In this document: piece after piece, positions 9,126 to 24,908 of the stretch
Layout of the letters: the number at the start of each line of letters is the position of its first letter
Position numbering within the stretch: the first letter of the stretch is position 1
Assembly: GCA_963790325.1 (NCBI GenBank)
Contig: CAWBNY010000004.1
Location: forward strand, 4,210 to 68,209
DNA length: 64,000 nucleotides
Direction: 5' to 3'
DNA from: an uncultured Acidimicrobiia bacterium
GTDB taxonomy: Bacteria > Actinomycetota > Acidimicrobiia > Acidimicrobiales > AC-14
Program-made: the position numbers and the translations under genes
The notes under the pieces: model-generated
What the model was told of the DNA's origin: nothing
Seen by the model: the letters and a program-made list of their open reading frames with translations, nothing else
Databases searched by the model: none

Positions 9126-11444
9126 ATGCAGACATCACCCACGTTCCTCGGCCGGGTCGCCGGCTGGTGCTTCGACCACCGGGCCAAGGCGGTCGGCCTC
9201 TGGCTGGTCGCCCTCGTCACGATCCTCGCCGCGGCCGGCTCCGTCGGCTCGCGCTTCAGCGCCACGTCCGCCGTCCCCGGCTCCGGCAGCGCCGCTGGGT
9301 TCGCGGTGCTCGAGGAGCACTTCCCCGAGCTGGGCACGGGTGGGCAGGCGGGGACCATCGTTTTCCGGGCCGAACAGGGGGTCGAGGACCCCGAGGTGCG
9401 GGCCGCCATGGCGGCGCTGTTCGAGCTCGTCGATGCCGGGTTCCCCGATGTCGACGGCGTGGCCCAGCACCCCGGCGGCACCATCGTCTCGCCCTGGTCG
9501 GCGCCGGACCAGATCGCCCGCGGGGGCACGGTCGCCTATGCCCAGGTGAACCTGGCAGCCGAGGTCGACGACACCGCATCGGGGCTCCTCGGGGAGGCGA
9601 TCAGCGACCACGCCCCTGCCATCGACGGCCTCGAGGTCTTCCCCGGCGGCCAGTACCTCGCCGTGGTCGCGCCGCCCGAGTCCGAGCTGATCGGACTGGC
9701 CTTCGCCATGCTCGTGCTGATCGTCGCCTTCGGCTCGGTGCTGGCCATGGGGCTGCCCATCGCCGTCGCCCTCGGCGGTGTCGGTGCCGGCATCGGGACG
9801 ACCCTGCTGCTGAGCAACGTGTTCACGATCCCCGAGGACGCGACCCTGCTCGGGATCATGATCGGCCTCGGCGTCGGGATCGACTATGCCCTGTTCATCG
9901 TCTCCCGCTTCCGGGAGGGCCTGCACGACGGCCGCTCGCCCCGGGACGCCACCGTCGCCGCGATGGCCTCGTCCGGCCGGGCCGTGGTCTTCGCCGGCAC
10001 GACCGTGATGATCTCGATGCTCGGCCTCCTCCTCGTCGGCATCGGCTGGATCGGCGGCATGGGCATCGGCGTGTCGGCGACGGTGCTGGCCACCATGCTC
10101 ACGTCGACGACGCTCCTCCCGGCGCTGCTCGGCTTCGCCCGCGAACGAGTCGAGCTCACCCGCTGGCGGGGCCTGGTCGCCGCCGGCTTCGTCGCCGTCG
10201 CCCTCCTCGCGCTCGGCCTCGGGCTCGCCCCGCTGGCGGCGATCGGCGCCCTGCTCGCCCTGCTCGCCCTGCTCGCCAGCGTCGCCGTCCAGCCCCTGCG
10301 CCGCCCCGTCCCCCGGCGGGCGGCCACGCCGGTGCGCTCGACCTACGCCTACCGCTGGAGCCGCACCATCCAGCGCCATCCGTGGCGTTGGCTGCTCGGC
10401 GCCACCACCGTGCTGGTGCTCCTGGCCGCGCCGGTCACGAGCATCCGCCTGGGCTGGGCCGACGAGGGCAACTTCCCCGAGGGCACGCCGACCCGGCAGG
10501 CCTACGATCTCCTGGCCGAGGGCTTCGGCGCCGGGTTCAACGGGCCGTTCCTGGTCACCGTCGTCTCCGACGACGCGCCGGCCGTCCTCCGGCTGCAGCG
10601 GGCTCTGGCCCAGACACCGGGCGTCGCCGCCGTCACCCCGCCCGTCGCCGACGACCCCACCCACCCGTCGGCCTTCCTCATGCGGCTCGTGGCCACCACC
10701 GCACCCCAGGACGAGGCGACCGGCGATCTCGTCCGCCACCTGCGCGACGACGTCATCCCCGCGGCCGGCGCCGGGCTCGACGTGCAGGTCACCGGCGCCG
10801 CCGCCACCAGCATCGACATCACCGACTACCTGGCCGAGCGCACCGTCGTCTTCTTCGGGGCGGTGCTGGCCCTCTCTTTCGTGCTGCTGCTGCTGGTGTT
10901 CCGGTCGCTGCTGGTGCCGCTCAAGGCCGTGGTCATGAACGTGCTGTCGATCGGCGCCGCCTACGGCATCGTCGTCGCCGTCTTCCAGTGGGGGTGGGCC
11001 GGCTCGGTGCTCGGCATCGAGGGCGGGCCGATCAACCCGTTCATCCCGATGATGCTCTTCGCCGTCGTGTTCGGCCTCTCGATGGACTACGAGGTCTTCA
11101 TGCTCTCCCGCATCCGGGAGGAGTACGTCCGCACTGGTGACGCCACCACGTCGGTGGCCGACGGCCTGGCCTCCACGGCAAAGGTCATCACGGCCGCCGC
11201 CGCCATCATGGTCGTGGTCTTCGCCTCGTTCCTGCTCGAGGACATCCGGGAGATCAAGCTGTTCGGCCTCGGGCTTGCCGTCGCCGTCCTGCTCGACGCC
11301 ACCCTCGTCCGCATGGTGGTCGTGCCGGCCACCCTGGAGCTGCTCGGCGAGCGCAACTGGTGGCTCCCGACCTGGCTTGACCGGCTCCTGCCCCACGTCG
11401 AGATCGAACGCACCGAGCCGGTGCCCGAGCTGGTGGCGGCATGA
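9126..11444 (+). CDS. MMPL-family (RND superfamily) membrane transporter
   Basis: The protein is about 770 aa with two 6-TM bundles and the duplicated motif GLGVGIDYALFIVSRFRE / GLSMDYEVFMLSRIREE. The ORF track also allows a start at 9084. Confidence 0.9.
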   Translation: MQTSPTFLGRVAGWCFDHRAKAVGLWLVALVTILAAAGSVGSRFSATSAVPGSGSAAGFAVLEEHFPELGTGGQAGTIVFRAEQGVEDPEVRAAMAALFELVDAGFPDVDGVAQHPGGTIVSPWSAPDQIARGGTVAYAQVNLAAEVDDTASGLLGEAISDHAPAIDGLEVFPGGQYLAVVAPPESELIGLAFAMLVLIVAFGSVLAMGLPIAVALGGVGAGIGTTLLLSNVFTIPEDATLLGIMIGLGVGIDYALFIVSRFREGLHDGRSPRDATVAAMASSGRAVVFAGTTVMISMLGLLLVGIGWIGGMGIGVSATVLATMLTSTTLLPALLGFARERVELTRWRGLVAAGFVAVALLALGLGLAPLAAIGALLALLALLASVAVQPLRRPVPRRAATPVRSTYAYRWSRTIQRHPWRWLLGATTVLVLLAAPVTSIRLGWADEGNFPEGTPTRQAYDLLAEGFGAGFNGPFLVTVVSDDAPAVLRLQRALAQTPGVAAVTPPVADDPTHPSAFLMRLVATTAPQDEATGDLVRHLRDDVIPAAGAGLDVQVTGAAATSIDITDYLAERTVVFFGAVLALSFVLLLLVFRSLLVPLKAVVMNVLSIGAAYGIVVAVFQWGWAGSVLGIEGGPINPFIPMMLFAVVFGLSMDYEVFMLSRIREEYVRTGDATTSVADGLASTAKVITAAAAIMVVVFASFLLEDIREIKLFGLGLAVAVLLDATLVRMVVVPATLELLGERNWWLPTWLDRLLPHVEIERTEPVPELVAA

Positions 11445-11849
11445 AAGCCATCACCTGCCGCACCTACGGCGTCCTCCAGCTGGAGGAGGTCGTACGAGCC
11501 GGCGCCGGGCGCTGACGACGTGCTCGTCGACATGCACGCGGCGTCGGTGTTCGTCCCGGGGGGCACACTCGTGCAGGTCGGCGGCGACTCCGGCAATCGC
11601 TGGATCGGTCCCATCGGCCGGATGGTCGCCGCCGCCGGGCTCTCCCCGTTCGTCAGCCAGCGGATGACGAGCTTCGCGGTGCAGCCGAACCCGCGGGACC
11701 TCGTCCTCCTCGCCGACCTCGTCGAGCGCGGCCAGGTCGCTTTCGTGCTCGACCAGACCTTCGCCCTCGGCGAGGTCGCCGACGCCATCCGCCACGTCGA
11801 GGGTGGCCACACCCGCGGCAAGACCATCGTCACCACCACCAGGAGCTGA
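11441..11849 (+). pseudogene. zinc-type alcohol dehydrogenase/quinone oxidoreductase (MDR) remnant
   Basis: MKAITCRTYG..LQLEEV hits a stop at 11513. A second frame then reads DDVLVDMHAASV directly fused to PGGTLVQVGG...FVSQR...GHTRGKTIVT. About 170 aa of the middle of the fold are missing and there is a frameshift. Confidence 0.7.
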
Positions 11850-11852
11850 GCC

Positions 11853-12461
11853 ATGCACCCGATCCAGTTCGACGTCGACTACCCCGACGTCCCCCGCAAC
11901 CGAGCTACCGCGGCCTTCCGCCTGGTCCTCGTCATCCCGATCCTGGTCGTCCTCGGCGCGGTCGGGGCCACCGGCTTCGCCGACGACGGCACCGAGCTCG
12001 CTTGCCTCGCCGCCGGCGGGCTGTTCCTCCCGCCGCTGCTGCTGATCGTCTTCCGGCAGAAGTACCCGCGCTGGTGGTTCGACTTCAACGTCGGCTTCCT
12101 GCGGTTCGACGCCCGGGTGTTCGCCTACGCCCTGCTGCTCCGCGACGAGTACCCGTCGACCGACGAGGAGCAGGCCGTGCACCTCGAGCTGCCGTACCCC
12201 GACGTGGCCACCGACCTCAACCGCTGGCTGCCGCTGGTGAAGTGGTTCCTCGCCATCCCGCACTACGTCGTGCTGTTCGTCCTCGGCATCGGTGTCGTGC
12301 TGGCCACCATCGCCGCCTGGTTCGCCATCCTGTGCACCGGCCGCCACCCGCGACGCCTGTTCGACTTCACCGTCGGCGTCATGCGCTGGCACAACCGGGT
12401 CGCCGGCTACGCCTTCGCCCTGGTCACCGACACGTACCCGCCGTTCCGGCTGGCGGCCTGA
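11853..12461 (+). CDS. DUF4389-like membrane protein
   Basis: Two TM pairs and the motifs RFDARVFAYALLLRDEYP and FAILCTGRHPRRLFDF...YAFALVTDTYPPF are typical of DUF4389. Confidence 0.75.
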   Translation: MHPIQFDVDYPDVPRNRATAAFRLVLVIPILVVLGAVGATGFADDGTELACLAAGGLFLPPLLLIVFRQKYPRWWFDFNVGFLRFDARVFAYALLLRDEYPSTDEEQAVHLELPYPDVATDLNRWLPLVKWFLAIPHYVVLFVLGIGVVLATIAAWFAILCTGRHPRRLFDFTVGVMRWHNRVAGYAFALVTDTYPPFRLAA

Positions 12462-12485
12462 CCGTCAGCCCGCCGAGACGCTCGG

Positions 12486-12745
12486 CGGTCTGGGCTATCT
12501 CGGCCTCGTTGATTTGGTACTGCACGCGGTCAGTCGTCCTCGCCCGCTGTGATCTCGTGCGGGTCAACGACCGGGTGCTGAGTCTCGCTGGCAGGCTGCT
12601 CCCGCCCGAGCTTCGATCTCTCGTCGCCATTCATCTCGCCACCGCCGAGCGCCTTCGTGGCGAGGTCGGCGAGCTCGTCATCTACGACGAGCGCATGGCG
12701 GCCGCCGCCCGTCAGCTCGGGCACCGAGTGTTCGCGCCCGGATAG
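12486..12745 (+). pseudogene. PIN-domain (VapC-like) toxin, C-terminal remnant
   Basis: LRSLVAIHLATAERL...LVIYDERMAAAARQLGHRVFAPG matches the C-terminal half of VapC toxins. The N-terminal catalytic Asp region, a start codon and an antitoxin are all absent. Confidence 0.5.
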
Positions 12746-12888
12746 CGGAGACTCGCCACTCGCTGCCATCGGGTCACCGCGCTGCGGATCGCCCCACGCC
12801 ATCGCCCGCGCGTGCCCGTCCGGCAACGCCGGGGGTTCGATGGCTGGGAGCACCGCCGCCAGGTGGCCGCCCGGCAACGGGCAACCGC

Positions 12889-13860
12889 TCAGTCCCTTCG
12901 GCGCAGACCCGTGACCGGATCGGTGGCCAGGTCGATCACCACGGTCCCCACGCGCCGACCTCCGGCCGTCACCGACACCCGCCCGGTCCGATCCAACCCG
13001 CCCACCACCGCCGCCTCGATGCCGCGGGCGTGGAACGGGCGGAGGCAGTCGTCCTCCCGGCCGGGGGGGACGCACAGGAGGAAGGCGAAGCACGGGAAGC
13101 ACGTCAGCCACCGGGTGAGGTCCACACCGGCCGGCGCAGGCAAAAGGTCGAGGTCGACGGTGACGCCCAGGCGGTTGGCTTCCAACAGCATCCCGAGCGA
13201 CCCGAGGAGGCCGGCCATGCTCACGTCCTTGGCGGCCACGCATGACCCGTCCGCCGCGACCTGGGCGAGGAGGCGGACGTCGGCGGCCAGGCCGGTGCCC
13301 CGCTCGTCGAAGGAGCGGAAGAAAGGGAAGTCGTCCCGCATGGAGCCGGCGGTGACGGCGGCCACCACCAGGCTCTGACCGGCGGCGGCCCGGGTCATCG
13401 ACAGGGCCGGACCGCCGCCCACCAGCCGCCCCAGGCCGAACGCGGACAGCGCCGGCGGGCCGTCGTGGAGGGTGAGATGGCCGCCCACGACGGGCACGTC
13501 GTACAGCCGGCCGGCGTCGCGCATGCCCTCCAGCGCCAGGCGGGCGACCTCGGCCGAGGCCACCACCGTGTCGACGATGGCCAGCGGCACCGCCCCCATG
13601 GCGGCCAGGTCGTTGACGTTGGCCAGCACCGCGGCCACGCCCGCCCCGTAGGGATCGGCCGCCACCAAGCCGGGGAGCATCGCCTCGCCCCCCACCACCA
13701 GGTCGCCACCGACCAGAGCCCCGTCGTCGCCCGGGCCGGTGAGCCAGTCCGTTCCCCCGAAGACCTCCGACACCACCGCGATGGGCGCCTTGTTGCGCAA
13801 CCCCGGATGGGCCCGCACCGCGGCCGCCAGCGCCTCCAAATCTTGCACTAAAGTAGACAC
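12889..13860 (-). CDS. AIR synthase-related (PurM/ThiL/HypE-fold) ATP-utilising protein
   Basis: The PurM-like N domain shows GPGDDGALV...LANVNDLAAMGAVPLAIVDT, and the C domain shows KDVSMAGLLGSLGMLLE. I chose the GTG at 13860, which follows GGTAGAGAG. The longer ORF in the track is upstream read-through. Confidence 0.8.
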   Translation of the reverse strand: MSTLVQDLEALAAAVRAHPGLRNKAPIAVVSEVFGGTDWLTGPGDDGALVGGDLVVGGEAMLPGLVAADPYGAGVAAVLANVNDLAAMGAVPLAIVDTVVASAEVARLALEGMRDAGRLYDVPVVGGHLTLHDGPPALSAFGLGRLVGGGPALSMTRAAAGQSLVVAAVTAGSMRDDFPFFRSFDERGTGLAADVRLLAQVAADGSCVAAKDVSMAGLLGSLGMLLEANRLGVTVDLDLLPAPAGVDLTRWLTCFPCFAFLLCVPPGREDDCLRPFHARGIEAAVVGGLDRTGRVSVTAGGRRVGTVVIDLATDPVTGLRRRD

Positions 13861-13878
13861 CTCTCTACCATAGGATGC

Positions 13879-14658
13879 GTGGTTGCTCCGTTCCCGCTCG
13901 ATCTCCCGGAGCGGTCGACCAAGCCCCGCCGGGTGGGGCTCACCCACGTGCTCGACAAGGGTCTCACGCCCGGCCAGGTGACCGACCGGCTGGCCACGTG
14001 CGGGACCTACGTCGACGTGTGGAAGTTCGGCTGGGGCACCGCCTACGTGGACCCCATGGTGGAGGCCAAGCTCGCCGTCCTCGACCAGCACGCCGTGCTC
14101 GGCTGCCTGGGGGGCACCCTTCTCGAGGTGGCCTGGAGCCAGCGGCGGGCCGACGACCTCCTCGACTGGGCCGCCGGGGCCGGCTTCCCGTGCGTCGAGG
14201 TGTCCCGGGGGGCGGCGCCCATGAGCGTCGCCGACAAGCACGACCTCATCCGGGTGGCGGCGTCGGGGTTCACCGTGCTGTCCGAGGTGGGGGCCAAGAG
14301 CCGCACCGCCCGGATGGCGCCCGGGGACTGGGCCGACGAGGTGGCGGGCGATCTGGCCGCCGGCGCCCGGTGGGTCATCGCCGAGGGCCGGGAGAGCGGG
14401 ACGGTGGGCGTCTTCAACGACGACGGCAGCGTGCGGGAGGACGTGGTGACGGCGGTGGTGGGTGCCGCCGGCGGGGTCGAGCGGGTCGTGTTCGAAGCAC
14501 CCCGCAAGGACCAGCAGGCGTGGTTCATCCGCCGCTTCGGGAGCGAGGTCAACCTGGCCAACGTCGCCGTCACCGAGGTCATGGGCCTGGAGACGCTGCG
14601 CCTGGGGCTGCGGGCCGACACCATCGACCTGTCGGTCGGTCGCCTGCCGGTCCGCTAG
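13879..14658 (+). CDS. comA: (2R)-phospho-3-sulfolactate synthase (ComA/XcbB family)
   Basis: KPRRVGLTHVLDKG...YVDVWKFGWGTAY...GGTLLEVA...GFPCVEVSRG...VLSEVGAK follows the ComA family pattern. Confidence 0.85.
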   Translation: MVAPFPLDLPERSTKPRRVGLTHVLDKGLTPGQVTDRLATCGTYVDVWKFGWGTAYVDPMVEAKLAVLDQHAVLGCLGGTLLEVAWSQRRADDLLDWAAGAGFPCVEVSRGAAPMSVADKHDLIRVAASGFTVLSEVGAKSRTARMAPGDWADEVAGDLAAGARWVIAEGRESGTVGVFNDDGSVREDVVTAVVGAAGGVERVVFEAPRKDQQAWFIRRFGSEVNLANVAVTEVMGLETLRLGLRADTIDLSVGRLPVR

Positions 14659-14660
14659 CG

Positions 14661-15536
14661 GTGGCCAACCTCGTCCCCGGCCAGTACCGGAAGGTGTCGG
14701 TGGCGACGGTGGACGTCCCGCTGACGGTCGATGGCCTGACCAGCCACTTCCTCGGTCGGGAGGTCTACCGGGCGACCCGCTTCGTGGTGGTCCGGCGGGG
14801 GGACGACGCGGCCGTGGTCGAGGTCGATCACGCCGAGGACGGGCTGTTCGCACCGGTGAAGGCGGTGGAGGTCCTGGCCTTGCCGGCCGACTGTGACTAC
14901 GTGGTCGCGCCCGAGGTCGACACCGCCATCCCGTCGGCTCTGGCCGCCATCGCCTCCGGCGCCCGCTGCGTCGTGGTCGAGGGTCGCTACCGGCACGTGA
15001 GCTTCATCCTCGACCCCCGGCCCATCCGCATCCGGGTGGGCGACGTGGTGCCGCCGGGGCCGGCCAAGCTCCTCGACCAGGCCCGGCGGGTGCTGGCCGT
15101 GGCCGAGGACCTGCCGCCCGTCGAGCTGGTGCCGGACGTCGTCGACCTGGTCGATCTGGCCGCCGACCATCCGGCGCCGCGCTATCTCCTGCCGTGCCGA
15201 GGGTCGGGGATCGCGGTGGGGGGAGCGGCGGTCGACTTCCTCGACCAGCACCCCGAGCGGGGCGACTGGACCCTGCTCGGCTGCGCCCGGTCCCGAGCCA
15301 TCCACGAGTGGTTCTACGGCGACGTCCCGCCGACGGTGGACACCTGCCCCCGGCGCCTCTTCTCCGGCCGAGGTCTAAGCGACCGCCCGCTGCTCACCAA
15401 GTGCTGCCTGCTGGAGGACCGCAACCTCGACGAGCCGGGGGTGGCGGTGGTGCCGTGGGGCGCCTCCCTCGACCTGGTGCGGCGGGCACTGACCGCCCTG
15501 ACCACCGCCGAGGACCCGACGTGGGCGCCCGCCTGA
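14661..15536 (+). CDS. hypothetical protein (291 aa), embedded in the sulfonate operon
   Basis: It is in frame with near-saturated GC3. A GTG lies 2 nt after the comA stop, and its 3' end overlaps the next gene by 16 nt. No family was recognised. The C-terminal half is Cys-containing (CPRR...TKCC). Confidence 0.6.
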   Translation: MANLVPGQYRKVSVATVDVPLTVDGLTSHFLGREVYRATRFVVVRRGDDAAVVEVDHAEDGLFAPVKAVEVLALPADCDYVVAPEVDTAIPSALAAIASGARCVVVEGRYRHVSFILDPRPIRIRVGDVVPPGPAKLLDQARRVLAVAEDLPPVELVPDVVDLVDLAADHPAPRYLLPCRGSGIAVGGAAVDFLDQHPERGDWTLLGCARSRAIHEWFYGDVPPTVDTCPRRLFSGRGLSDRPLLTKCCLLEDRNLDEPGVAVVPWGASLDLVRRALTALTTAEDPTWAPA

Positions 15537-16882
15537 CCGACTCCGCTCTCTACGCCCACCTGTGGGGGACTGACGAGCTGCGGGCCGTGTTCGACGAACG
15601 CGCTCGGCTCCAGGGATGGCTCGACGTGGTGGCGGCGTTGGCCCGGGCCCAGGCCAAGCTCGGGATCGTCCCCCCCGAGGCGGCCGACGCCATCACCGAG
15701 CTGGCCACGGTCGACCGCCTCGACCTCGACTTCGTGGCCGCCGAGACCCGGCGCACGTCCCACTCCACCCTCGGCCTGATCCACGGCCTGCAGCGGGTGC
15801 TGCCCCCCGAGGCGGCCGGGCACGTGTACGTGGGCACCACCGTCCAGGACGTCACCGACACGTGGACGGTGCTCGCCCTGCGGGAGGTGGGGCGGGTGGC
15901 ATGGCGCGACCTGCGCATCGTCGAGGGCCTCCTCCTCGACCTGGCCGAGCGCCACCGGGACACGGTCATGGTCGGGCGGACCCACGGCCAGCCGGGGTCG
16001 CCGATCACGTTCGGGTACAAAGCCGCCTCGTGGGCGGACGAGGTCCGCCGCCACCTCGACCGGCTGGCCGAGGGCCGGCCCCGGTGGCTGGTCGGCCAGC
16101 TGGGCGGGGCCGTCGGCGTCCTCGGCTACTTCGGGGCCGACGGGCCGGCCCTTCGATCCGCCTTCTGCACCGAGCTCGATCTCGACGATCCGGCGATCTC
16201 GTGGCTGACGGCGAGGGACCGGCTGGCAGAGGCGGCGTCGGTGTTCGCCCTGGTCACGGGCACCTTGGCCCGCATCGGCAACGAGGTCCTCGAACTGCAG
16301 CGGCCCGAGATCGGCGAGCTGGCCGAGCCCACCACGGCCGACGTCGTGGGCAGCATCACCATGCCCCACAAGCGCAACCCGGAGCGCAGCGAGCACCTCG
16401 ACACCCTGGCCCGGCTGGTGCGGGCCAACGCCGCCGTCCTCGTCGAGGGCGTGGCCCAGCTCCACGAGCGGGACGGGCGGGCGTGGAAGGCGGAGTGGGT
16501 GGCGTTCCCCGAGGTGTGCCTGCTCACTGGAGTCGCCCTGCGGACCGCGATCGAGCTGCTCACCGGCCTCGAGGTCGACGGCGAGGCGATGGCCCGCCGG
16601 GTCGGGCAACGGGACGAGGCGGGCTCGGAGCGGGTGCTGGCCGTCCTCACCGCCCGCCTCGGCCGCCACCCGGCCCGGGAAGCGCTCCACCGGGCCCTCC
16701 GACCGGGCTCCGCCGGAACACCGTCTCTGGCCGACGCAGTCGTCGCCGAAGGCCTCCTCACCGCCGACGAGGTCGCCCGCCTGCTCGCCGAGCCGGCCGT
16801 CGAGGGGGCCGTGGCCATGGTCGACGAGGTCGTCCGCCGGGGTCGCGCCGCCCGGGCCGGCGACCCGTCGGCGTGGGCCTGA
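15521..16882 (+). CDS. aspartase/fumarase-superfamily lyase, adenylosuccinate lyase/CMLE-like (XcbC-like candidate)
   Basis: Contains LYAHLWGT, TVQDVTDT and the superfamily signature loop GSITMPHKRNPERSEHL. Confidence 0.85.
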   Translation: MGARLTDSALYAHLWGTDELRAVFDERARLQGWLDVVAALARAQAKLGIVPPEAADAITELATVDRLDLDFVAAETRRTSHSTLGLIHGLQRVLPPEAAGHVYVGTTVQDVTDTWTVLALREVGRVAWRDLRIVEGLLLDLAERHRDTVMVGRTHGQPGSPITFGYKAASWADEVRRHLDRLAEGRPRWLVGQLGGAVGVLGYFGADGPALRSAFCTELDLDDPAISWLTARDRLAEAASVFALVTGTLARIGNEVLELQRPEIGELAEPTTADVVGSITMPHKRNPERSEHLDTLARLVRANAAVLVEGVAQLHERDGRAWKAEWVAFPEVCLLTGVALRTAIELLTGLEVDGEAMARRVGQRDEAGSERVLAVLTARLGRHPAREALHRALRPGSAGTPSLADAVVAEGLLTADEVARLLAEPAVEGAVAMVDEVVRRGRAARAGDPSAWA

Positions 16883-16955
16883 CCCGGTGGTCCATGCGCT
16901 GGCCGTCCGGACCGGTGACACTGCGGGGGTTCACCAGTCCGAACGGAGACCTCCC

Positions 16956-17954
16956 GTGACCGTCAGCCCCGCCCTGGCCACCGCCGCTGCGCTGCCCCGA
17001 CTGCTCCTGGCCAACCTGCCCACGCCCCTCGTGGAGGCGTCGCGGCTGACCCACGCCCTCGGTGGCCCACCCATCCACGTCAAGCGCGACGACCTCGCCG
17101 GCTTCGGCCTGGCCGGCCACAAGGCCCGCCAGCTCGAGTTCCTGGTGGGGGCCGCCCTCGACCAGGGCTGCGACGTGATGGTCACCGGTGGCGGGCCCAG
17201 CTCGAACTTCTGCGCCGCGGCCGCGGCGGCGGCGTCGGCCGCCGGCCTCGACTGCCACCTCGTCCTCTACGGGGCCGAGCCGGAGCAGACCCATCCCAAC
17301 CTGGCCGTGGCCCAGGCGTGCGGAGCGGTCGTGCGCTACACCCGCGACCCGTCGCGGTCGTCGGTCGACGCCCGGGTGGTGGAGGTGGCGGAGGCGCTCA
17401 CCGCCGGCGGGCGGCAGCCCTTCGCCATGCCCCGGGGCGGCGCCACCGCCCTGGGCACGGTGGGGATGGTGCTCGGCGTGGAGGAGCTGGCCGCCCAGCT
17501 GGACGAGGCGGGCATCGAGCCGGCCATGGTGGTCATCGCCACCGGCTCCGGCGCCGCCTGCGCCGGCCTGACCCTGGGGGCGTCGCTGTGCGGGCGGTCG
17601 TGGCGGGTGGTGGGCGCCTCGGTGAGCCGGCCCGGGGAAGAGGTCGTGCAATCGGTGCAGACGCTCGCCGCCGAGTGCGCCGAGCTGCTCGGTGTCGAGA
17701 CCCCGCCCGGGCTCAGCCTGGAGCTGGCCGACGCCCGTGGTCCCGGATTCGGCGTCCCGTCGGCCGACGGCGAGTCGGCCGCCCGGGTGGCGCTGCGCAC
17801 CGAGGGCCTCGTCCTCGACCCGGTGTACACGGCCAAGGCCCTGGCCGTCCTCCTCCGCCTGCTCGACCCGGGGTCGAAGCAGCCGGTAGTTTTCTGGCAC
17901 ACCGGCGGGCTCCTGGGGGCGGCCCACCACCTGGCGGGAGGCGGCGAGGAGTGA
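16956..17954 (+). CDS. PLP-dependent enzyme of the ACC deaminase/D-cysteine desulfhydrase family (XcbE-like candidate)
   Basis: Contains PTPLVEASRL...HVKRDDLAGFGLAGHKARQLEFLV (the PLP-Lys motif) and the glycine loop TGGGPSSNF. I chose the GTG at 16956, which follows GGAGA; the ORF track start is 16887. Confidence 0.85.
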   Translation: MTVSPALATAAALPRLLLANLPTPLVEASRLTHALGGPPIHVKRDDLAGFGLAGHKARQLEFLVGAALDQGCDVMVTGGGPSSNFCAAAAAAASAAGLDCHLVLYGAEPEQTHPNLAVAQACGAVVRYTRDPSRSSVDARVVEVAEALTAGGRQPFAMPRGGATALGTVGMVLGVEELAAQLDEAGIEPAMVVIATGSGAACAGLTLGASLCGRSWRVVGASVSRPGEEVVQSVQTLAAECAELLGVETPPGLSLELADARGPGFGVPSADGESAARVALRTEGLVLDPVYTAKALAVLLRLLDPGSKQPVVFWHTGGLLGAAHHLAGGGEE

Positions 17955-17956
17955 AC

Positions 17957-18013
17957 GGTGGCGGTGGCGGGGTGGTGGTGGTGGTGGTGGTGGCGGTGGC
18001 GGTGGCGGTGGCG
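17957..18013 (+). repeat. (GGT/GGC)n trinucleotide microsatellite, A-free, in the intercistronic spacer
   Basis: The sequence ggtggcggtggcggggtggtggtggtggtggtggtggcggtggcggtggcggtggcggc fills the spacer between the stop at 17954 and the GTG at 18031. Confidence 0.95.
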
Positions 18014-18030
18014 GCCCGGCCCGGGAGCTG

Positions 18031-19464
18031 GTGGAGTCCGGCTTCACCCTGGAGAACGCCGACGCACCCCTCCTGCACCAGGGCCTCAACCTGGCCGACA
18101 TCGCCCACGTCATCGACCTCCGGGGTCGGCGGGTGGTCCCCGAGGACGCCGCCCGCCAGCTCCTCGACCTGCTGCTCGAGGTCCACGGCATGCCGGCCGA
18201 GGAGTTCCCCTACGACCCGTCCTTCGGCGAGGCCTACAACTCCCGGGAGCGGTACTTCGCCTCCCGGCTGGGCGACGTGGCCGGGTGGCTGCACGCCGGG
18301 CGGCCCCGGCGGGAGGCCACCCGCATGGCCCTGCGGCTGCTCCTCCGGCGCCAGCTGGTCGACCTGGTGGAGGACGCGGCCGGCTTCGTCGACAGCGTGG
18401 TCAGTCAGGCGGCGGCCCACCTGGGCACGCTCATGCCCGACCAGACGTACCTCCAGCAGGCCCAGCCGTCGACGTTCGGCCACTACGTCCTGTCCTTCGC
18501 CTACCCGACGGCGCGGGACGCGGCCCGCCTGGTCGACTGCATCGAGTGGGTGAACCTGTCGCCCGGCGGGGCCGGCTGCGTCAACGGGAGCCGGCTGCTG
18601 GAGGACCGGTCGGTGATCGCCGGGCTGCTGGGCTTCGGCGGGGTCATCGAGCACACCCGGGACGCGATGTGGCAGGTGGACGGCCTGATCAACATCCTGG
18701 CCACCACCGCCAGCATGCTGTCCAACCAGTCCAAGCTGGCCGAGGACCTGGAGATCTGGTCGTCGAGCGAGTTCGACTACGTCGACCTCGACGACGGTTT
18801 CACCCGGTCGAGCGTCCTCATGCCGAACAAGCGGAACCCCTACGCCCTGTCGATCGTGCGGGGGGCCTCGGGGATCCTGATCGGGCGGCTGGCGGGGTTC
18901 CTGGCCGTGGTCAAGAGCCCCTCCGCCCGCAGCGACAACCTCATCTTCGCCTACGGCGAGGTCCCCCGGGCCCTCGACCTGGCGTCGCGGACGACCCGCC
19001 TGATGGCCGGGGTGGTGCGCACCCTGCGGGTCAACCGCCAGCACATGGCCGACGCCCTGACGGCCGGCTTCACCCAGGCCACCGACCTGGCCGAGCACAT
19101 CGTCCAGGTGTGCCGCATCGACTACCGCACCGCCTACGTGATCGTGGGGGCGACGGTGCGGGCGGCGGCCGCGGTCGGGTTGCGGGGCGTCGACATCACC
19201 GGCGAGATGCTCGACAACGCGTCCGTCGAGCACCAGGGCCGGCCCCTCGGGCTGGCCGGCCACGACCTCTCGGCGGTGCTCGACCCGATGCGCATCGTGT
19301 CCAGCCGCTCGGCCACCGGCGGGGCCGCGCCCGAGGCGGTGGGGGGGATGGTGGCCACCTGCCGGGAGTCGGCGTCGTCGCTGCACGCCGAGGCCGACCG
19401 CTGGCGGGACTCGTTCGACTGCGCCGAGGCGGCGCTGCTCAAGCTGGCGGAGGAGACGGCGTGA
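18031..19464 (+). CDS. aspartase/fumarase-superfamily lyase, argininosuccinate lyase-like (XcbD-like candidate)
   Basis: Contains TYLQQAQPSTFGHY and the signature loop SSVLMPNKRNPYALS. No in-frame start exists between the stop at 17887 and 18028/18031. Confidence 0.85.
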   Translation: MESGFTLENADAPLLHQGLNLADIAHVIDLRGRRVVPEDAARQLLDLLLEVHGMPAEEFPYDPSFGEAYNSRERYFASRLGDVAGWLHAGRPRREATRMALRLLLRRQLVDLVEDAAGFVDSVVSQAAAHLGTLMPDQTYLQQAQPSTFGHYVLSFAYPTARDAARLVDCIEWVNLSPGGAGCVNGSRLLEDRSVIAGLLGFGGVIEHTRDAMWQVDGLINILATTASMLSNQSKLAEDLEIWSSSEFDYVDLDDGFTRSSVLMPNKRNPYALSIVRGASGILIGRLAGFLAVVKSPSARSDNLIFAYGEVPRALDLASRTTRLMAGVVRTLRVNRQHMADALTAGFTQATDLAEHIVQVCRIDYRTAYVIVGATVRAAAAVGLRGVDITGEMLDNASVEHQGRPLGLAGHDLSAVLDPMRIVSSRSATGGAAPEAVGGMVATCRESASSLHAEADRWRDSFDCAEAALLKLAEETA

Positions 19465-20849
19465 CCCGGGTGGAGCTGCCGACCGAGGTGTCGGTGGTCA
19501 ACCTGGGGCTGGCGCTGTTCGCCGATGCCATCCGGGACCAGGGCCGGCCCGTCCTCCATGTCGACTGGCGCATCCCGGCCGGAGGCGACCTGGCGCTGGT
19601 GGCGGCGCTGACCCGGCTGTACGGGCGGCACGGGGCGGCGGTCGACGCGGCCAATGCCGAGGTCGTGCGCCGGCTGGACACCGGGGTGCCGCGGCTGGTC
19701 GGGATCGCGCCGGCCGGCGACGTGGTGCCGGGGATGGGCGAGCGCACCATCCTCCACTGCGGGCCGGCCATCGGGTGGGACGACATGGGCGAGCCGCTGC
19801 GCAACTCGGTGCGGGCGGCGGTGCGGGCCGAGGGGTGGGACCCGGCGGGCGGCGACGACGAGGTCGACCTGGAGCCGGCCAACCACCACTCGGCGGTCGT
19901 GCCCATGGCCACCGCCATGGGGCCGTCGACGCCCGTGTTCGTGGTCGAGATGGAGGGCCTCCGCTCGTTCTCGCCCATCAACCAAGGCCCGGGCGAGGTG
20001 GCCTGGTTCGGGCGGGACACCCCGGCCGCCGTCGACCGGCTCGTCTTCCTGCGGGACGTGGCCGGCCCCCTGCTGGCCTCGGTGGTGGCGGCGGCCGGCC
20101 CGCTGGATCTGATGGCGGTGGCGGCCCAGGGCCTGCAGATGGGCGACGACCTGCACATGCGCACCCAGGCCGCCACCAACCTCCTGCTGCGGACCTGGCT
20201 CCCCCACCTCATGGGCCTGGAGCCGGCCGCCCGGTCCGAGCTCGGGGGCTTCCTCGCCGGGAACCACCTGTTCTTCCTGAACCTGGCCATGGCCGGGGCC
20301 AAGGCGCTGACCCTGTGGGCCGAGCAGGTGCCGGGCGCCAGCGTGGTCACCACCATGGCCCGCAACGGGACCGCCTACGGCGTCCGGCTGCCGGGGTCGC
20401 CGGAGTGGTTCGTGACCGGCTCGCCGCCGGTCGGCGACGCCTTGTTCCACCCCGGCCGGTCGGCCGACGACGCCGCCCCCGACATCGGCGACTCGGCGGT
20501 GCTGGAGCTGATCGGGCTGGGCGGGTGCGCGGCGGCGGGCTCGCCGGCGGTGGCGGCCTTCGTGGGGGGAACGATGGCCGACGCGGTCGCGACCACGGAG
20601 GACATGGACCGGGTGTGCGCCGGGCGGAGCAGCCGGTTCAGGCTGCCCATCCTCGACTTCCGGGGCACGCCGGTGGGCGTCGACGTGCGCAAGGTGGTCG
20701 AGCTCGGCATCACGCCCAAGGTCACCACCGGCATCCTCCACGCCGGTGACGGGGGCCAGATCGGCGCCGGGGTGGCGCACGGCCCGATCGCCTGCTTCCG
20801 CGACGCCCTCCTCGATCTCGACCGCCGCCTCGATCGCCGCCTCGGGTGA
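19461..20849 (+). CDS. DUF1116-family protein (YlbE-like)
   Basis: The GTGA overlap with the upstream stop couples the two genes. The length and the motifs HHSAVVPMA, GDDLHMRTQAAT and MARNGT...DSAV.E..GLGG resemble the YlbE/DUF1116 family. This call is from memory of the family and was not searched. Confidence 0.7.
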   Translation: MTRVELPTEVSVVNLGLALFADAIRDQGRPVLHVDWRIPAGGDLALVAALTRLYGRHGAAVDAANAEVVRRLDTGVPRLVGIAPAGDVVPGMGERTILHCGPAIGWDDMGEPLRNSVRAAVRAEGWDPAGGDDEVDLEPANHHSAVVPMATAMGPSTPVFVVEMEGLRSFSPINQGPGEVAWFGRDTPAAVDRLVFLRDVAGPLLASVVAAAGPLDLMAVAAQGLQMGDDLHMRTQAATNLLLRTWLPHLMGLEPAARSELGGFLAGNHLFFLNLAMAGAKALTLWAEQVPGASVVTTMARNGTAYGVRLPGSPEWFVTGSPPVGDALFHPGRSADDAAPDIGDSAVLELIGLGGCAAAGSPAVAAFVGGTMADAVATTEDMDRVCAGRSSRFRLPILDFRGTPVGVDVRKVVELGITPKVTTGILHAGDGGQIGAGVAHGPIACFRDALLDLDRRLDRRLG

Positions 20850-21631
20850 CCGTCGAAGTCGGCGCCGGTGCCCACCGGACGCTGGCGGTCGACGGGCGGG
20901 GGCAGGTGGTGGGCGTCTACCGCCACGCCGCCCATCTCCGCCTGCCGGCAGGGATGGTGGCGGTGGTCACGCCCCAGGTGGGGCGGGGCCCGCTCCACGT
21001 GCGCGGCCCGGTGCGGCCCGAGCTCCTCGCCCCCGGCGACCGGGTCGACGTGGTGGGCGGCGCTTCGCTGCGCGTGGCGACGGCGGTTGAGGTCGACCTG
21101 GCCGCGGCCCGGGTGTGGCGGGGGGCGCTGCCCGAGCCATCGACGTTGGCCGGTGCCGACTTGAACGTCTTCGCCGCCGCCCCTCCGTCGGCGTTGGTCG
21201 ACCCGGTCCACGCCGACCGGCTGGCGGTGGCCGTCCACCGCCTCGACCACGACGACCTGGCGGGTGCGGCCCGGGCCATCGGCGGGCTGGGTCCGGGTCT
21301 GACCCCGTCGGGCGACGACGTCCTGGCCGGGATCCTTCTCGTCCGGCGGGCGCTCCGGGGACCGGCGGCGGAGTCGGGGTTGGTCGCCGTCGCCCGCGCC
21401 GTGCGGACCACCTCGTTGTCGCGGGAGGTCCTGGTGTGGGCCGCCCGGGGCCAGGCGGTGGAGCCCGTCCACGACCTCCTGGGCTCGGTGGCGGCCGGCG
21501 ACCGGGCCGCCGCCGACACCGCCCTGGCGCACGTGGTCGCCCTCGGCCACTCGTCCGGTGCCGACCTCGCCCTCGGCCTCGCCCTCGGACTGGGACTGCG
21601 TCTCGGGGTTGCCCGAACGGGGTACCGGTGA
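20846..21631 (+). CDS. DUF2877-family protein (YlbF-like)
   Basis: It overlaps the upstream stop (GTGA). GLGPGLTPSGDDVLAGILL and the C-terminal ALGHSSGADL are characteristic DUF2877 motifs. Confidence 0.7.
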   Translation: MTVEVGAGAHRTLAVDGRGQVVGVYRHAAHLRLPAGMVAVVTPQVGRGPLHVRGPVRPELLAPGDRVDVVGGASLRVATAVEVDLAAARVWRGALPEPSTLAGADLNVFAAAPPSALVDPVHADRLAVAVHRLDHDDLAGAARAIGGLGPGLTPSGDDVLAGILLVRRALRGPAAESGLVAVARAVRTTSLSREVLVWAARGQAVEPVHDLLGSVAAGDRAAADTALAHVVALGHSSGADLALGLALGLGLRLGVARTGYR

Positions 21632-21828: not shown

Positions 21829-22128
21829 GTGGCCTGCGGGTGCCGCTTCGCCCAGGGTGCGCCGCTCCACCATGACCTCCTGACCCGGGTCGACGCCGAC
21901 GTCGCCGCCGCCCTCGACCTTTTCGAGCTGGCCATCACTTGGGACGAGCTCGACTACAGCGAGCAGGCCCTCGTCCCCCCCGCCGACTGGCTCGACTTCG
22001 CCGCCGAGCACCGGTGGCACGACCCCGAGCTGGCCGAGCGCCTGTTCTCGGTGGCGGTCGACATCGCCTACCGACGGGGCACCCCCGCCGCCCCCCGCCT
22101 CCTCCGGGTCCTGACCCCCTCCGCCTGA
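21829..22128 (+). CDS. hypothetical acidic protein (about 100 aa)
   Basis: The 3' two-thirds (LLTRVDADVAAALDLFELAITWDELDYSEQ...) have saturated GC3. The start is uncertain: GTG at 21829 or 21799. The ATG at 21733 would add an implausible Cys/Arg-rich leader. Confidence 0.4.
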   Translation: MACGCRFAQGAPLHHDLLTRVDADVAAALDLFELAITWDELDYSEQALVPPADWLDFAAEHRWHDPELAERLFSVAVDIAYRRGTPAAPRLLRVLTPSA

Positions 22129-22198: not shown

Positions 22199-24832
22199 TC
22201 AGACGTCGTTGCGGCCGATGCAGACGAAGGCGGCGGCCGCCGCCCGGTCCTGACCGTCGCCGGCGCCGGCCAGGGCGAGGGCCGGGCGCTCCCCCGCCCG
22301 CAGCCGCCGGTGGAGGGCGACCATGACCGCGGTGGTGGCCACGTCGGGCACCGGCAGGAGGGGGGCGATCACGGCCCGGACGCCGAGCGATAGGAGGGCG
22401 GCGGCCGTGCCCAGGAGGTCGTCACCCTCGTGGACGGCGGCCACCGCCGCGTCGCAGGCCGAGAGCACCACCACCGACGGCGCCCGGCGGAGCCGCTCGA
22501 GGTCGTAGACGGTGAGCGGACCGTCGTGGAGGAGCACCGACGAGAAGAGGGGGCTGTCGGCCCGAAACGTCCCGTGGGCGGCCAGGTGGGCCAGATCGGC
22601 CTTCTCCAGCGCGGCCACGACACCGGCGACGGTCGCCCGCTCGCCGGTGAGCACGGTCGCCCTCGGGTAGAGGGCAGCCAGTTGACCGACCTCGGTCTCG
22701 GCCCCGGGCAGCCGGGGCCCCGCCACCAGCGCCACCCGCCGCCGCCCCCGGGAAGGCGCCGGCCGGGCCGGCCCGGCCGTCCCCGCCAGCCACACCGCGG
22801 CACTGGGAGCGACGGTGGTCGGGCGCCCCGCCAGGGTCGGCAGGGTCGACCACGGCAAACCGTGCAACTCGCCCGTGGGGACCACCACCACCGGCTGCCC
22901 GTTCGGCACGCCCAACGGAGCCAGCAAGAGCTCGTCGAGGCGGGCCGCGGTCGACGCCAGGGCCGACTCCGCCACCGCCCGCGATCCGGGCCAGAGCAGG
23001 CGCCGAAGGGCGAACATGAGGTACTGCCGCTCCCGCTCGACCTCCACCGCCGGGGCCAGGTCGTGGACCTTCACCCCTGCCCGGCGGACGGTGACGGCGT
23101 GCAGCCGCCCCTGCACCGACACGAACTCGACGAGGACGCGGTCACCCAACGCCCGCCGCAACGAGGCGACGTCGAGCCGGCCGGTGTCCGCCGCCCCGTC
23201 GTCACTCGCCCGCCGGGTGCGGTCCCGCACCCTCTCCTCCACCGCCGCCGCCTGCAGCGTCAGCGTCGGGGTCGGCCCGCCGTTGAGGGCGGCGTCCCGC
23301 AGCTCGGTCCGGATGCGGCGGAGCTGGGCCAGGTCGGCGGCCAGCTCGCCGTCGTCGGGCGGCCGCGCCGGCGGTCGCCGCAGCGCGCCCGCCCGCCCCC
23401 GCTCGACCCAGCGCAGGACCTCGGCCGGCCGCCCGCCGTCGAGGGCCAGGCGGACGCCGAGACGGGCCAGGTCGGCCGAGTGACCGGCCGCCCGGGCCCG
23501 CAGCTCCGACCCGCCGAGGGTCGCCCGGTACTCGTCGACGACGGTGATACCCCGGCCCAGGGCCCGCTTGGCGCCGGCTCGGTCGCCCTCGGCCAGGCGC
23601 AGCAGGGCGGTGGCGTGCCACGCCTGAGCCCGGCAGTCGGCGGATCCCACGGTGCGGGCGGACGCCGACTGGCCCAGCTCGGTGCGGGCGACGGCCGGCC
23701 GGCCCAGGGCCAGCGCCATCCGACCCACGAACGTGCGCACGTGGAGCGCCTCCACCGCCCACCCCTGGGACTCGAGCTCGGCCGCGATCCGCCGGCTGCG
23801 GCGGAGCAGGCCCGGTGGCGGAACCTCCTGGTCCTGGTGGGCCAGGACCGCGGCCTGGATCTCGACATACCGGGCCTGGGCCGACCACGGGAGGCGGCGG
23901 GCGGCCCGGAACTGGCGGGCGGCGAGGGCCGCCTCCGCCGCCGCCTGATCGTAGGCCCCCGCGGCCAGGAGGGACCGGGCCAGCAGGAGCCGGCACTCGT
24001 TGAGGTGGGTGAGGTCGCCCCGGGCCAGGGCGGCCACCGCCGACGCGGCTGCGGCCCGGGCCTCGCCCACCAGGCCTGCGGCCAGCAACACCTCGCTGCG
24101 GTCGGCGTCGAGCACCGCCACCAGCCGGTCCGGGTTGTCGAGGTCCTGGTAGGCCCGCTGGGCCCGGTCGAAGGCAGCCAGCGCCTCCGGCAACCTTCCC
24201 TGCCGGCAGTAGGCGAAGCCGGTGTTGTGGGCGGCCATGGCCACGATCATCGGGAGGTCCCGCTCCAAAGCGATCCGCTCCCCTTCGGCGAAGTCGGCGA
24301 GGGCGGCGTCGAGGTGGCCCTGGGCGCCGTGGAGGATGCCCCGGCACACCCGCAGCCGGGCGATCGACGCCTTGCTGCCCGTGCGGGCCAGGGAGCGGAG
24401 GGATCGTCCGTAGGCGGGCAGGGCCTGGTCGAGGTGGCCCGTCCAGTGGAGGACGACGCCGCCGAGGAGCTCCACCTCACCCCGCACCGACGTCGGAGCC
24501 ATCTCCCGGGCCCGCCCGATCTCCCGGGTGCTACCGGCGACGTCACCCACGCTGAGCAGGGAGATCGCCATGCTGGCCCGAGCCATCGCCTCCCGGTCGG
24601 GGAGGTTGTGCGCGACGCTGGTGGCCACGGCCGCCCGGTAGCGGCCGAGCGCCTCCCGGTGACGACCGAGCTCGTGGAGGGCCAGCCCGACGACCCACGA
24701 CGCGGCCGCGGAGACGCTCGGGGCGTCGGCGCCCTCGACCAGCTCGGTGGCCCGAGCCAGGACCGCAGCCGGGTCGCGATGGCGGCGATCGGCCAGCTCG
24801 GCCAGCTCGTCGAGGACCGCCCGCGACCCCAC
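22199..24832 (-). CDS. TPR-repeat protein with C-terminal CHAT (caspase-like) protease domain
   Basis: About 600 aa of TPR-like helical repeats precede a CHAT dyad context: DLAHLAAHGTF (His) and VVVLSACDAA (Cys). There is no signal peptide. Confidence 0.85.
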   Translation of the reverse strand: MGSRAVLDELAELADRRHRDPAAVLARATELVEGADAPSVSAAASWVVGLALHELGRHREALGRYRAAVATSVAHNLPDREAMARASMAISLLSVGDVAGSTREIGRAREMAPTSVRGEVELLGGVVLHWTGHLDQALPAYGRSLRSLARTGSKASIARLRVCRGILHGAQGHLDAALADFAEGERIALERDLPMIVAMAAHNTGFAYCRQGRLPEALAAFDRAQRAYQDLDNPDRLVAVLDADRSEVLLAAGLVGEARAAAASAVAALARGDLTHLNECRLLLARSLLAAGAYDQAAAEAALAARQFRAARRLPWSAQARYVEIQAAVLAHQDQEVPPPGLLRRSRRIAAELESQGWAVEALHVRTFVGRMALALGRPAVARTELGQSASARTVGSADCRAQAWHATALLRLAEGDRAGAKRALGRGITVVDEYRATLGGSELRARAAGHSADLARLGVRLALDGGRPAEVLRWVERGRAGALRRPPARPPDDGELAADLAQLRRIRTELRDAALNGGPTPTLTLQAAAVEERVRDRTRRASDDGAADTGRLDVASLRRALGDRVLVEFVSVQGRLHAVTVRRAGVKVHDLAPAVEVERERQYLMFALRRLLWPGSRAVAESALASTAARLDELLLAPLGVPNGQPVVVVPTGELHGLPWSTLPTLAGRPTTVAPSAAVWLAGTAGPARPAPSRGRRRVALVAGPRLPGAETEVGQLAALYPRATVLTGERATVAGVVAALEKADLAHLAAHGTFRADSPLFSSVLLHDGPLTVYDLERLRRAPSVVVLSACDAAVAAVHEGDDLLGTAAALLSLGVRAVIAPLLPVPDVATTAVMVALHRRLRAGERPALALAGAGDGQDRAAAAAFVCIGRNDV

Positions 24833-24881
24833 GGCTCGGAATGGTAGAGAGTCGTGTGTATCTCAGCGGCCCCTGCCGACT

Positions 24882-24895
24882 GTGAACGGTGAACG
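24882..24895 (+). promoter_or_regulatory. tandem GTGAACG GTGAACG in the CHAT/S8 divergent intergenic region
   Basis: A perfect 7-bp tandem repeat lies just upstream of the GAGGGAGG Shine-Dalgarno sequence of the S8 gene. Confidence 0.2.
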
Positions 24896-24908
24896 AGGGA
24901 GGCGGACA

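Follow-up and report, generated by a model that had tools for sequence, protein, structure and literature searches.

The coenzyme M (CoM) pathway of Xanthobacter autotrophicus Py2 consists of five enzymes, XcbA to XcbE, and has been reconstituted in vitro (Wu et al., 2022; PMC9457059). A 2024 paper limits the known occurrence of CoM biosynthesis genes to methanogenic archaea and to bacteria that use alkenes aerobically (PMC11507031), and the uses of bacterial CoM that are known by experiment all lie in alkene and epoxide metabolism (PMC9457059; PMC11507031). Two further systems are related to the locus described here. The gpr/Nit1C operon of Mycobacterium smegmatis is upregulated under nitrogen starvation, makes the cells resistant to peroxide and increases the NADPH/NADP ratio (PMC6039565), and the Nit1C/gpr cluster has been tied to cyanide assimilation in pseudomonads. 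The AllFGH enzyme of Escherichia coli converts oxalurate and phosphate to oxamate and carbamoyl phosphate, and together with carbamate kinase it forms a self-sufficient oxalurate module (Kim and Kim, 2024; PMC11326118). Here we analysed a stretch of 64,000 nucleotides (the window) from an uncultured Acidimicrobiia bacterium (contig CAWBNY010000004.1, positions 4,210 to 68,209), which carries an xcb operon. This xcb unit is the core of a neighbourhood of about 20 genes that is conserved across Actinomycetota and contains the hallmark families of Nit1C/gpr.

The window has a G+C content of about 73%, which fills the lists of open reading frames (ORFs) with shadow frames, and coding frames were therefore chosen by the G+C content at third codon positions (GC3) together with the ORF listing. 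Both confirm the eight tightly packed genes at 12889–21631 that a preliminary description, made from the letters alone, had reported: a PurM-like gene on the minus strand and seven co-directional genes on the plus strand. The junctions given there are exact, namely a 2-nt gap (14658/14661), a 16-nt overlap (15521/15536), two GTGA overlaps (19461–19464 and 20846–20849) and, ahead of xcbB, an 18-bp spacer to the divergent PurM-like gene (13861–13878). Two further gaps, of 4 nt between xcbD and xcbE and of 76 nt between xcbE and xcbC, complete the layout. The quoted motifs GSITMPHKRNPE, GHKARQLEF and SSVLMPNKRNPY are present in the translations, and the family calls hold in Pfam (ComA, Lyase_1 twice, PALP, AIRS/AIRS_C, DUF1116 and DUF2877, the last two of which are now Pfam AllG and AllH).

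As judged from the sequence, the core of the operon is a complete, ordinary xcb set in the order xcbB-A-D-E-C, with all five genes on the plus strand. For comparison, the reference xcb clusters of Py2 and Nocardioides sp. JS614 were taken from a plasmid collection; the window proteins XcbA to XcbE share 37–46% identity with the Py2 set and 44–51% with the JS614 set. xcbB (13879–14658) encodes a ComA-type phosphosulfolactate synthase (phosphoenolpyruvate, PEP, plus sulfite), which matches Pfam ComA over its full length at 260 bits (cut-off 25) and scores 240 bits with the archaeal equivalog TIGR03849, below the cut-off of 280. XcbB is 49% identical to JS614 XcbB and 37% identical to Py2 XcbB. 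xcbA (14661–15536) encodes a member of the [2Fe-2S] thioaldehyde reductase family (DUF7714, 301 bits; NF052538, 338 bits, cut-off 150) with 42% identity to Xanthobacter XcbA and 49% to the JS614 homolog; residues C179, C208, C229, C248 and C249 are invariant in 17 relatives and are kept in Py2 and JS614. xcbD (15521–16882) encodes an adenylosuccinate-lyase-like homolog of 3-sulfopropionylcysteine synthase (best model NF052536), whose loop GSITMPHK.NPE is common to Py2 and JS614, at 51% and 42% identity. xcbE (16887–17954) encodes a pyridoxal phosphate (PLP) enzyme of the D-cysteine desulfhydrase/1-aminocyclopropane-1-carboxylate (ACC) deaminase fold (best model NF052537), with lesser matches to CuyA (219 bits) and to the ACC_deam_rel/D-cysteine desulfhydrase family (202 bits). 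The PLP lysine in G(H/N)K.R is kept, the identity to the JS614 and Py2 proteins is 44–46%, and the xcbE start is uncertain because the first ~30 codons lack a counterpart in homologs. xcbC (18031–19464) encodes an argininosuccinate-lyase-like homolog of the phosphosulfolactate phosphate-eliminating enzyme (best model NF052535), which shares the loop S.(L/I)(M/L)P(N/Q)KRNPYAL with Py2 and JS614, at 47% and 37% identity.

All five Xcb families come first among the NCBIfam matches, and for XcbC, XcbD and XcbE the corresponding Xcb model has a wide margin over the housekeeping models. A housekeeping identity (PurB, ArgH or DcyD) of the lyase and PLP genes is rejected on these profile scores: 571 bits against 249 for purB (XcbD), 423 against 272 for argH (XcbC) and 304 against 202 (XcbE). 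The locus is therefore xcb-like, as first proposed, and the two lyases and the PLP enzyme are closest to Xcb-type families; the labels given to them have to be reassigned, the adenylosuccinate-lyase-like protein being XcbD, the PLP enzyme XcbE and the argininosuccinate-lyase-like protein XcbC. The preliminary description also held that four families, XcbB to XcbE, make up the pathway, while the published pathway has five, XcbA to XcbE (PMC9457059); the 291-residue protein that it regarded as an inserted orphan is XcbA. Its gene order, B-orphan-C-E-D, was said to differ from the described operon; the true order, B-A-D-E-C, already occurs on the JS614 plasmid pNOCA01. The XcbA family itself is not new, since curators already define it (NCBIfam XcbA, Pfam DUF7714). 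It comprises 460 clusters at 50% identity, many of which are fragments.

To map the neighbourhood, an alignment of XcbA homologs served to scan one genome per species (185,579 species), which yielded 155 relatives; 80 loci were kept, and family counts refer to the 41 loci with full 10-kb flanks. The locus proteins were clustered, the families conserved in at least 10 loci were scanned against Pfam and NCBIfam, and tblastn and locally built hidden Markov models (HMMs) were applied. The kept loci are almost all from Actinomycetota (Acidimicrobiia, Nocardioidaceae, Jiangellaceae, Streptosporangiales, Pseudonocardia, Planosporangium and others), and the genera with cultured carriers include Nocardioides (N. 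guangzhouensis 130), Pseudonocardia (P. ailaonensis JCM 16009), Planosporangium (P. flavigriseum TBRC 198), Nonomuraea (N. sediminis) and Streptosporangium. Outside this phylum, a metagenome-assembled genome (MAG) of Candidatus Dormibacteria (locus L065) carries the glycosyltransferase, FdrA, carbamate kinase, radical SAM and GNAT genes together with xcbBADE.

In nearly all kept loci, tblastn and the HMMs recover the same unit, in which a minus-strand PurM-like gene diverges from xcbB, A, D, E, C, allG and (in part) allH. One relative, whose AllG is 72% identical to that of the window, has the same eight genes within different flanks. Because this gene order recurs in about 80 loci of other genomes, the arrangement is far beyond chance. 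The gene junctions are conserved as well. A 4-nt overlap is the commonest junction at B/A, D/E, E/C, C/allG and allG/allH, and the GTGA overlap of xcbC and allG is found in 23 of 55 loci, the commonest form of that junction. The 16-nt overlap of xcbA and xcbD is kept at its exact length in 57 of 66 loci across the classes of Actinomycetota, and this fixed overlap (15521–15536 in the window) is an unusually rigid gene junction. Gene content, homology, order, coupling and conservation are in this way directly observed.

Among the full-flank loci, the core families are XcbB and XcbD (40/41 each), XcbC (39/41), AllG (38/41), PurM-like (36/41) and XcbE (34/41). Of the partners, FdrA occurs in 34/41, carbamate kinase and OsmC in 33/41 each, the glycosyltransferase in 32/41, radical SAM and GNAT in 31/41 each, the DsrE-like protein in 27/41, the flavoprotein in 24/41, nitrile hydratase in 20/41 and the HTH_3 plus cupin regulator in 19/41. 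In most relatives the upstream side of the PurM-like gene is occupied by an MSMEG_0565-family glycosyltransferase (369 bits, cut-off 260). The same upstream module contains an FdrA/AllF homolog (384 bits, 36% identical to E. coli FdrA) with an adjoining carbamate kinase (345 bits), an MSMEG_0568 radical SAM protein (381 bits, cut-off 304) and an MSMEG_0567/Sll0786 GNAT protein (94 bits, cut-off 68). Downstream, the relatives have OsmC, the alpha, beta and accessory proteins of nitrile hydratase, the MSMEG_0572/Sll0783 DsrE-like protein, the CoA-disulfide-reductase-type flavoprotein and the cupin-HTH regulator. The order and orientation of the modules differ among loci. The conserved families include no nitrilase (in Nit1C, of the sll0784 type), in the place of which the three nitrile hydratase proteins are found, and no allantoin-pathway enzyme is among the families conserved in at least 10 loci. 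The three additional families of the preliminary description (PurM-fold, DUF1116 and DUF2877) are thus indeed attached to the xcb genes and conserved with them as a unit; what it missed is that they are parts of a larger neighbourhood of Nit1C-like, AllFGH-carbamate kinase and nitrile hydratase genes. Variant loci without xcbB and xcbE (L015/L046/L058 type) have flanks with PadR, phosphoribosyltransferase, GT87 and ABC transporter matches in Pfam, which are uninformative.

The window retains the downstream module at 29862–34813, 8–13 kb past the xcb operon. On the minus strand, an OsmC/Ohr-type thiol peroxidase gene (29862–30404; Pfam OsmC, 72 bits), whose true start probably lies further downstream than the ORF start, encodes two Cys residues that are conserved across 31 family members. 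The minus strand also carries the genes of the nitrile hydratase accessory protein (30244–30654; TIGR03889, 66 bits, cut-off 46), the cobalt-type alpha subunit (30651–31253; TIGR01323, 294 bits, cut-off 250) and the beta subunit (31250–31918; TIGR03888, 195 bits, cut-off 152). The alpha subunit scores 193 bits with the thiocyanate hydrolase gamma model, below the cut-off of 291, and its metal site is VCTLCSCY, a motif that we take to be of the cobalt type. Also on the minus strand are the DsrE-like nitrogen-starvation protein of the MSMEG_0572/Sll0783 family (31992–32480; TIGR04044, 210 bits, cut-off 110), a hallmark of Nit1C/gpr with one conserved Cys (YACRF), and a CoA-disulfide-reductase-type flavoprotein with a single redox cysteine (32809–34143; Pyr_redox_2, 165 bits; best NCBIfam model CoA-disulfide reductase, 244 bits, below cut-off). 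The YSPCGIP motif of the flavoprotein is kept in 25 of 25 complete copies. A plus-strand gene for an HTH_3 plus cupin regulator (34196–34813; Pfam HTH_3 and Cupin_2), 58% identical to its homolog in locus L014, diverges from the flavoprotein gene.

The operon ends with two genes for subunits of the AllFGH type, both on the plus strand. The start of allG (19461–20849; Pfam AllG, 206 bits) overlaps the xcbC stop, and the start of allH (20846–21631; Pfam AllH, 86 bits) overlaps the allG stop, both through GTGA. AllG is 37% identical to E. coli YlbE/AllG over 406 residues, and a sequence search of the PDB returned only 3clq (E = 1e-64), a structure of unknown function. Residues 6–56 of AllG (window 19476–19628) match the C-terminal end of E. 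coli FdrA/AllF (NF004760 residues 507–554; PDB 3dmy residues 428–476), and the FdrA-like protein of the relatives is without this tail (the last ~45 residues of E. coli FdrA). The segment seems to have moved between subunits, from the tail of FdrA to the N-terminus of AllG, which argues that the AllF/AllG partnership is retained and suggests that the subunits still cooperate. AllH is 38% identical to E. coli YlbF over the C-terminal 112 residues and has no match in a PDB sequence search. Its AlphaFold2 model (59 homologs; predicted local distance difference test score, pLDDT, 95.7) consists of an N-terminal OB-like barrel and a C-terminal all-alpha domain, which bears the invariant motifs GxGxGLTPxGDD and GHSSGAD. 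A Foldseek search of the PDB gave nothing significant (best E = 0.03, TM-score at most 0.16; the weak OB matches include HypC), and the predicted helical domain is of a fold absent among solved structures. A ribokinase/YjeF-like nucleotide-binding fold, considered for the GLTPSGDD motif, was rejected, as the model shows an OB-like barrel with an all-alpha domain and has no PDB match. Past allH lies a small conserved plus-strand ORF of 99 residues (21829–22128) without a Pfam or NCBIfam match, homologs of which occupy the same position in 10–11 loci, mainly of Acidimicrobiia and also in one Pseudonocardia locus.

The divergent gene (12889–13860, minus strand; alternative starts at 13848 and 13839) encodes a PurM-fold, AIR-synthase-like protein, probably of the Nit1C type (Pfam AIRS, 65 bits; AIRS_C, 50 bits). 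Its best NCBIfam match is TIGR04049, the sll0787 family (226 bits, E = 7.5e-67, below the cut-off of 321), followed by methanogenesis marker 2 (147 bits, full length) and MSMEG_0567_Cter (143 bits). The methanogenesis marker protein 2 family marks methanogens, which make CoM too; the likeness may be a coincidence or may hint at an action on CoM-related substrates. Between the PurM-like gene and xcbB is an AT-richer putative control region (13838–13878, no strand assigned), in which we read by eye TTGCAC, 17 nt, TACCAT and 7 nt to the xcbB GTG. This spacing is compatible with a leaderless or short-leader xcbB transcript. A consensus scan for promoters and terminators gave no sigma-70 match and one terminator-like site that was not above shuffles.

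The product of the locus, and with it every link from the thiol to a neighbouring enzyme, is what we infer from these observations. By homology to the Xanthobacter enzymes, XcbB would add sulfite to PEP, XcbC would eliminate phosphate to give sulfoacrylate, XcbD would add cysteine, the PLP enzyme XcbE would release sulfoethanethioaldehyde, and the [2Fe-2S] protein XcbA would reduce the latter to 2-mercaptoethanesulfonate. The xcb genes are translationally coupled to the AllG/AllH-type subunits of a presumed phosphorolytic carbamoyltransferase and are paired divergently with a putative Nit1C-type PurM-like ATP enzyme. From this conserved gene context it is argued that the thiol serves the neighbouring enzymes. 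The most likely reading, which we consider moderately probable, is that the locus makes CoM or a close analogue, as a dedicated thiol for nitrile and carbamoyl nitrogen salvage and redox defence rather than for epoxide metabolism.

Several observations weigh against this assignment. XcbC, XcbD and XcbE score under the strict NCBIfam cut-offs (423 against 575, 571 against 600 and 304 against 450 bits, respectively), and the chromosomal actinobacterial Xcb proteins, ~42–57% identical to the validated plasmid copies, form a separate-looking group by identity, so that the product could differ. In about 7 of the 41 loci XcbE is undetected, and just half of the 41 have nitrile hydratase within 10 kb. 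The glycosyltransferase, FdrA, carbamate kinase, radical SAM and GNAT genes are absent anywhere in the 64-kb window, and the 3´ end of the PurM-like gene (~12.9 kb) is the exact point at which DNA similarity to the four closest relatives breaks off (region ~11520–12970), which indicates that this lineage lost or moved the upstream module. Its place is taken by a DUF4389 gene, a 109-residue ADH_zinc_N_2 fragment (11520–11849) that is probably a gene remnant, an MMPL transporter and a two-component system.

An ordinary supply of CoM to a CoM-dependent pathway for alkenes, epoxides or other hydrocarbons at another genomic site would agree with the experimentally known uses of bacterial CoM, all of this kind, and with the order B-A-D-E-C of the ethene oxidiser JS614. 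With Py2 and JS614 proteins as queries, tblastn detected no epoxyalkane:CoM transferase (EaCoMT/EtnE), 2-ketopropyl-CoM oxidoreductase/carboxylase (2-KPCC) or alkene monooxygenase in the 64-kb window or within 10 kb in the 80 loci; for the transferase and the monooxygenase in the window, this bears out the preliminary description. The known CoM users cluster such genes with xcb, and the conserved partners here are nitrogen and redox genes, which makes such a supply highly improbable. A search of the open-access literature found no paper with xcb genes outside alkene oxidisers and none that ties CoM genes to Nit1C, nitrile hydratase or AllFGH.

The neighbourhood might also be a coincidental island, in which CoM synthesis, ureide catabolism by AllFGH and carbamate kinase, and nitrile hydratase are three independent units. 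The self-sufficiency of E. coli AllFGH and carbamate kinase for oxalurate (PMC11326118) fits this view, as do the variable order and orientation of the modules, the presence of nitrile hydratase near only half of the loci, and the loss of one module from the window itself. Such independence is very unlikely given that allG and allH are split from allF and follow xcbC, most commonly with stop and start codons that overlap, that the association spans Acidimicrobiia to Streptosporangiales and the Dormibacteria MAG, and that no allantoin-pathway genes are among the conserved families.

A third alternative is that the xcb product does not serve as free CoM but is a sulfonate or thiol building block, which the glycosyltransferase, GNAT, radical SAM and PurM-like proteins extend, as in the assembly of mycothiol or bacillithiol, to a new thiol of low molecular weight or another small molecule, with the flavoprotein and OsmC as its reductase and peroxidase. 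The secondary NCBIfam matches of the glycosyltransferase include MshA, BshA and SenB, and a conserved GNAT gene (as in MshD) adjoins it; the single-cysteine disulfide-reductase motif and the OsmC cysteines are kept; gpr gives peroxide resistance and raises the NADPH/NADP ratio; and XcbC, XcbD and XcbE, below the Xcb cut-offs, belong to a group that looks distinct from the validated enzymes. Against these points, canonical Nit1C has the same glycosyltransferase, GNAT, radical SAM and PurM-like families, in line with the names of the matched NCBIfam families, and is not known to include xcb, so these enzymes would need no CoM-like substrate. The window retains xcb, allGH, nitrile hydratase and the flavoprotein without the glycosyltransferase, GNAT and radical SAM genes, and all five Xcb catalytic signatures are intact. 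We regard an elaborated thiol as rather unlikely.

CoM itself could act as the carrier of a one-carbon C–N unit, a proposal to which we give a low probability. Oxidised CoM would trap cyanide or a cyano donor in the form of the thiocyanate ester CoM-S-CN, and nitrile hydratase would hydrate the ester to S-carbamoyl-CoM. The AllFGH-type enzyme would phosphorolyse the latter to CoM and carbamoyl phosphate, from which carbamate kinase would yield ATP, NH3 and CO2. As a HypE-type dehydratase, the PurM-like protein could catalyse the opposite reaction, from thiocarbamate to thiocyanate, and the flavoprotein and OsmC could cycle CoM between thiol and disulfide. The route is suggested by the exchange of nitrilase for nitrile hydratase with AllFGH and carbamate kinase, which is chemically sensible only if the hydratase product is a carbamoyl-X compound. 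If true, it would account for the nitrilase replacement and for the thiol pathway embedded in the cluster, as well as for the ties of Nit1C to cyanide assimilation, nitrogen starvation and the NADPH and peroxide phenotypes.

The remainder of the window contains regulators, transporters and unrelated enzymes, as found by Pfam on the called genes. At the left end, positions 1–6600 form a stretch of ~59% G+C within the ~73% G+C window. It encodes a LeuD-like small subunit (353–922, plus strand) and a minus-strand operon of a Sua5/TsaC-like protein (1199–1948), a 394-residue protein with an isopropylmalate/homocitrate-synthase catalytic domain (1952–3136), a protein without a family (3133–4236), an acetolactate-synthase-like thiamine pyrophosphate (TPP) enzyme (4233–6227) and a small protein without a family (6224–6598). 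The stretch looks like a horizontally acquired small-molecule cassette of the 2-oxoacid-elongation type; since an Rfam scan of the window gave no match, it is not a ribosomal RNA operon. Directly past the xcb operon (22199–27558) are an 877-residue TPR-CHAT protein on the minus strand, which is common to the closest relatives only, a subtilase, an extracytoplasmic function (ECF)-type sigma factor and a small unknown ORF. Two large BTAD-AAA_16-TPR (SARP/LAL-like) regulators are encoded on the minus strand at 36814–40029 and 58221–61364.

The core pathway is already known; what is new is the conserved composite neighbourhood of xcb with a nitrogen-stress, nitrile and carbamoyl gene set, and its implication. 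The complete xcb set is present in at least 155 species-level genomes, and no alkene genes lie within 10 kb in the 80 inspected loci. Should CoM indeed be produced, its physiological role in common soil bacteria would be one not recognised so far. The link offers a chemical handle on the Nit1C/gpr cluster, whose phenotypes (cyanide assimilation, nitrogen starvation and peroxide resistance) are clear, and would point to a substrate other than a ureide for enzymes of the AllFGH type.

Compared with Nit1C/gpr (MSMEG_0565–0572; sll0783–sll0787), the window shares the DsrE-like MSMEG_0572 family and has a PurM-like protein whose best match, below cut-off, is the sll0787 type, whereas the MSMEG_0565 glycosyltransferase, MSMEG_0568 radical SAM and MSMEG_0567 GNAT families are present in the relatives and not in the window. 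A cobalt nitrile hydratase replaces the nitrilase, the xcb, AllFGH, carbamate kinase and OsmC genes are interleaved, and the flavoprotein is of the CoA-disulfide-reductase type. Relative to the E. coli oxamic transcarbamylase AllFGH with its carbamate kinase AllK, the identities are 37% for AllG, 38% for the C-terminal domain of AllH and 36% for the FdrA-like protein of the relatives. The allantoin context is absent and FdrA and carbamate kinase are not in the window; allG and allH have become part of the xcb operon, away from allF and the carbamate kinase gene, and AllG carries the FdrA tail.

All five families of Py2 xcbABCDE are common to the window and intact, at 37–46% identity over nearly the full length, with the loops, the PLP lysine and the XcbA cysteines kept. 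The Py2 order is A-B-C-D-E, in contrast to B-A-D-E-C in the window, where the locus is chromosomal and apart from xec/aam genes; the Py2 plasmid pXAUT01 is without allG/allH and the PurM-like gene, to both of which the window xcb genes are coupled. The plasmid xcb cluster of Mycolicibacterium chubuense NBB4, like JS614 an ethene/vinyl chloride oxidiser, is represented here by an XcbA match only. The order of the xcb genes on Nocardioides sp. JS614 pNOCA01 (xcbB-A-D-E-C) is identical to that of the window, at 44–51% identity. On pNOCA01, xcb adjoins etnE and an alkene monooxygenase and is without allG/allH or a PurM-like gene, whereas the window and its 80 relatives are without alkene genes. 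The FAD oxidoreductase that is divergent from xcbB on pNOCA01 (9666–11033 of locus L083) is 32% identical to the window flavoprotein and has homologs in 28–29 of the loci. A related flavoprotein may thus accompany the CoM genes in both contexts.

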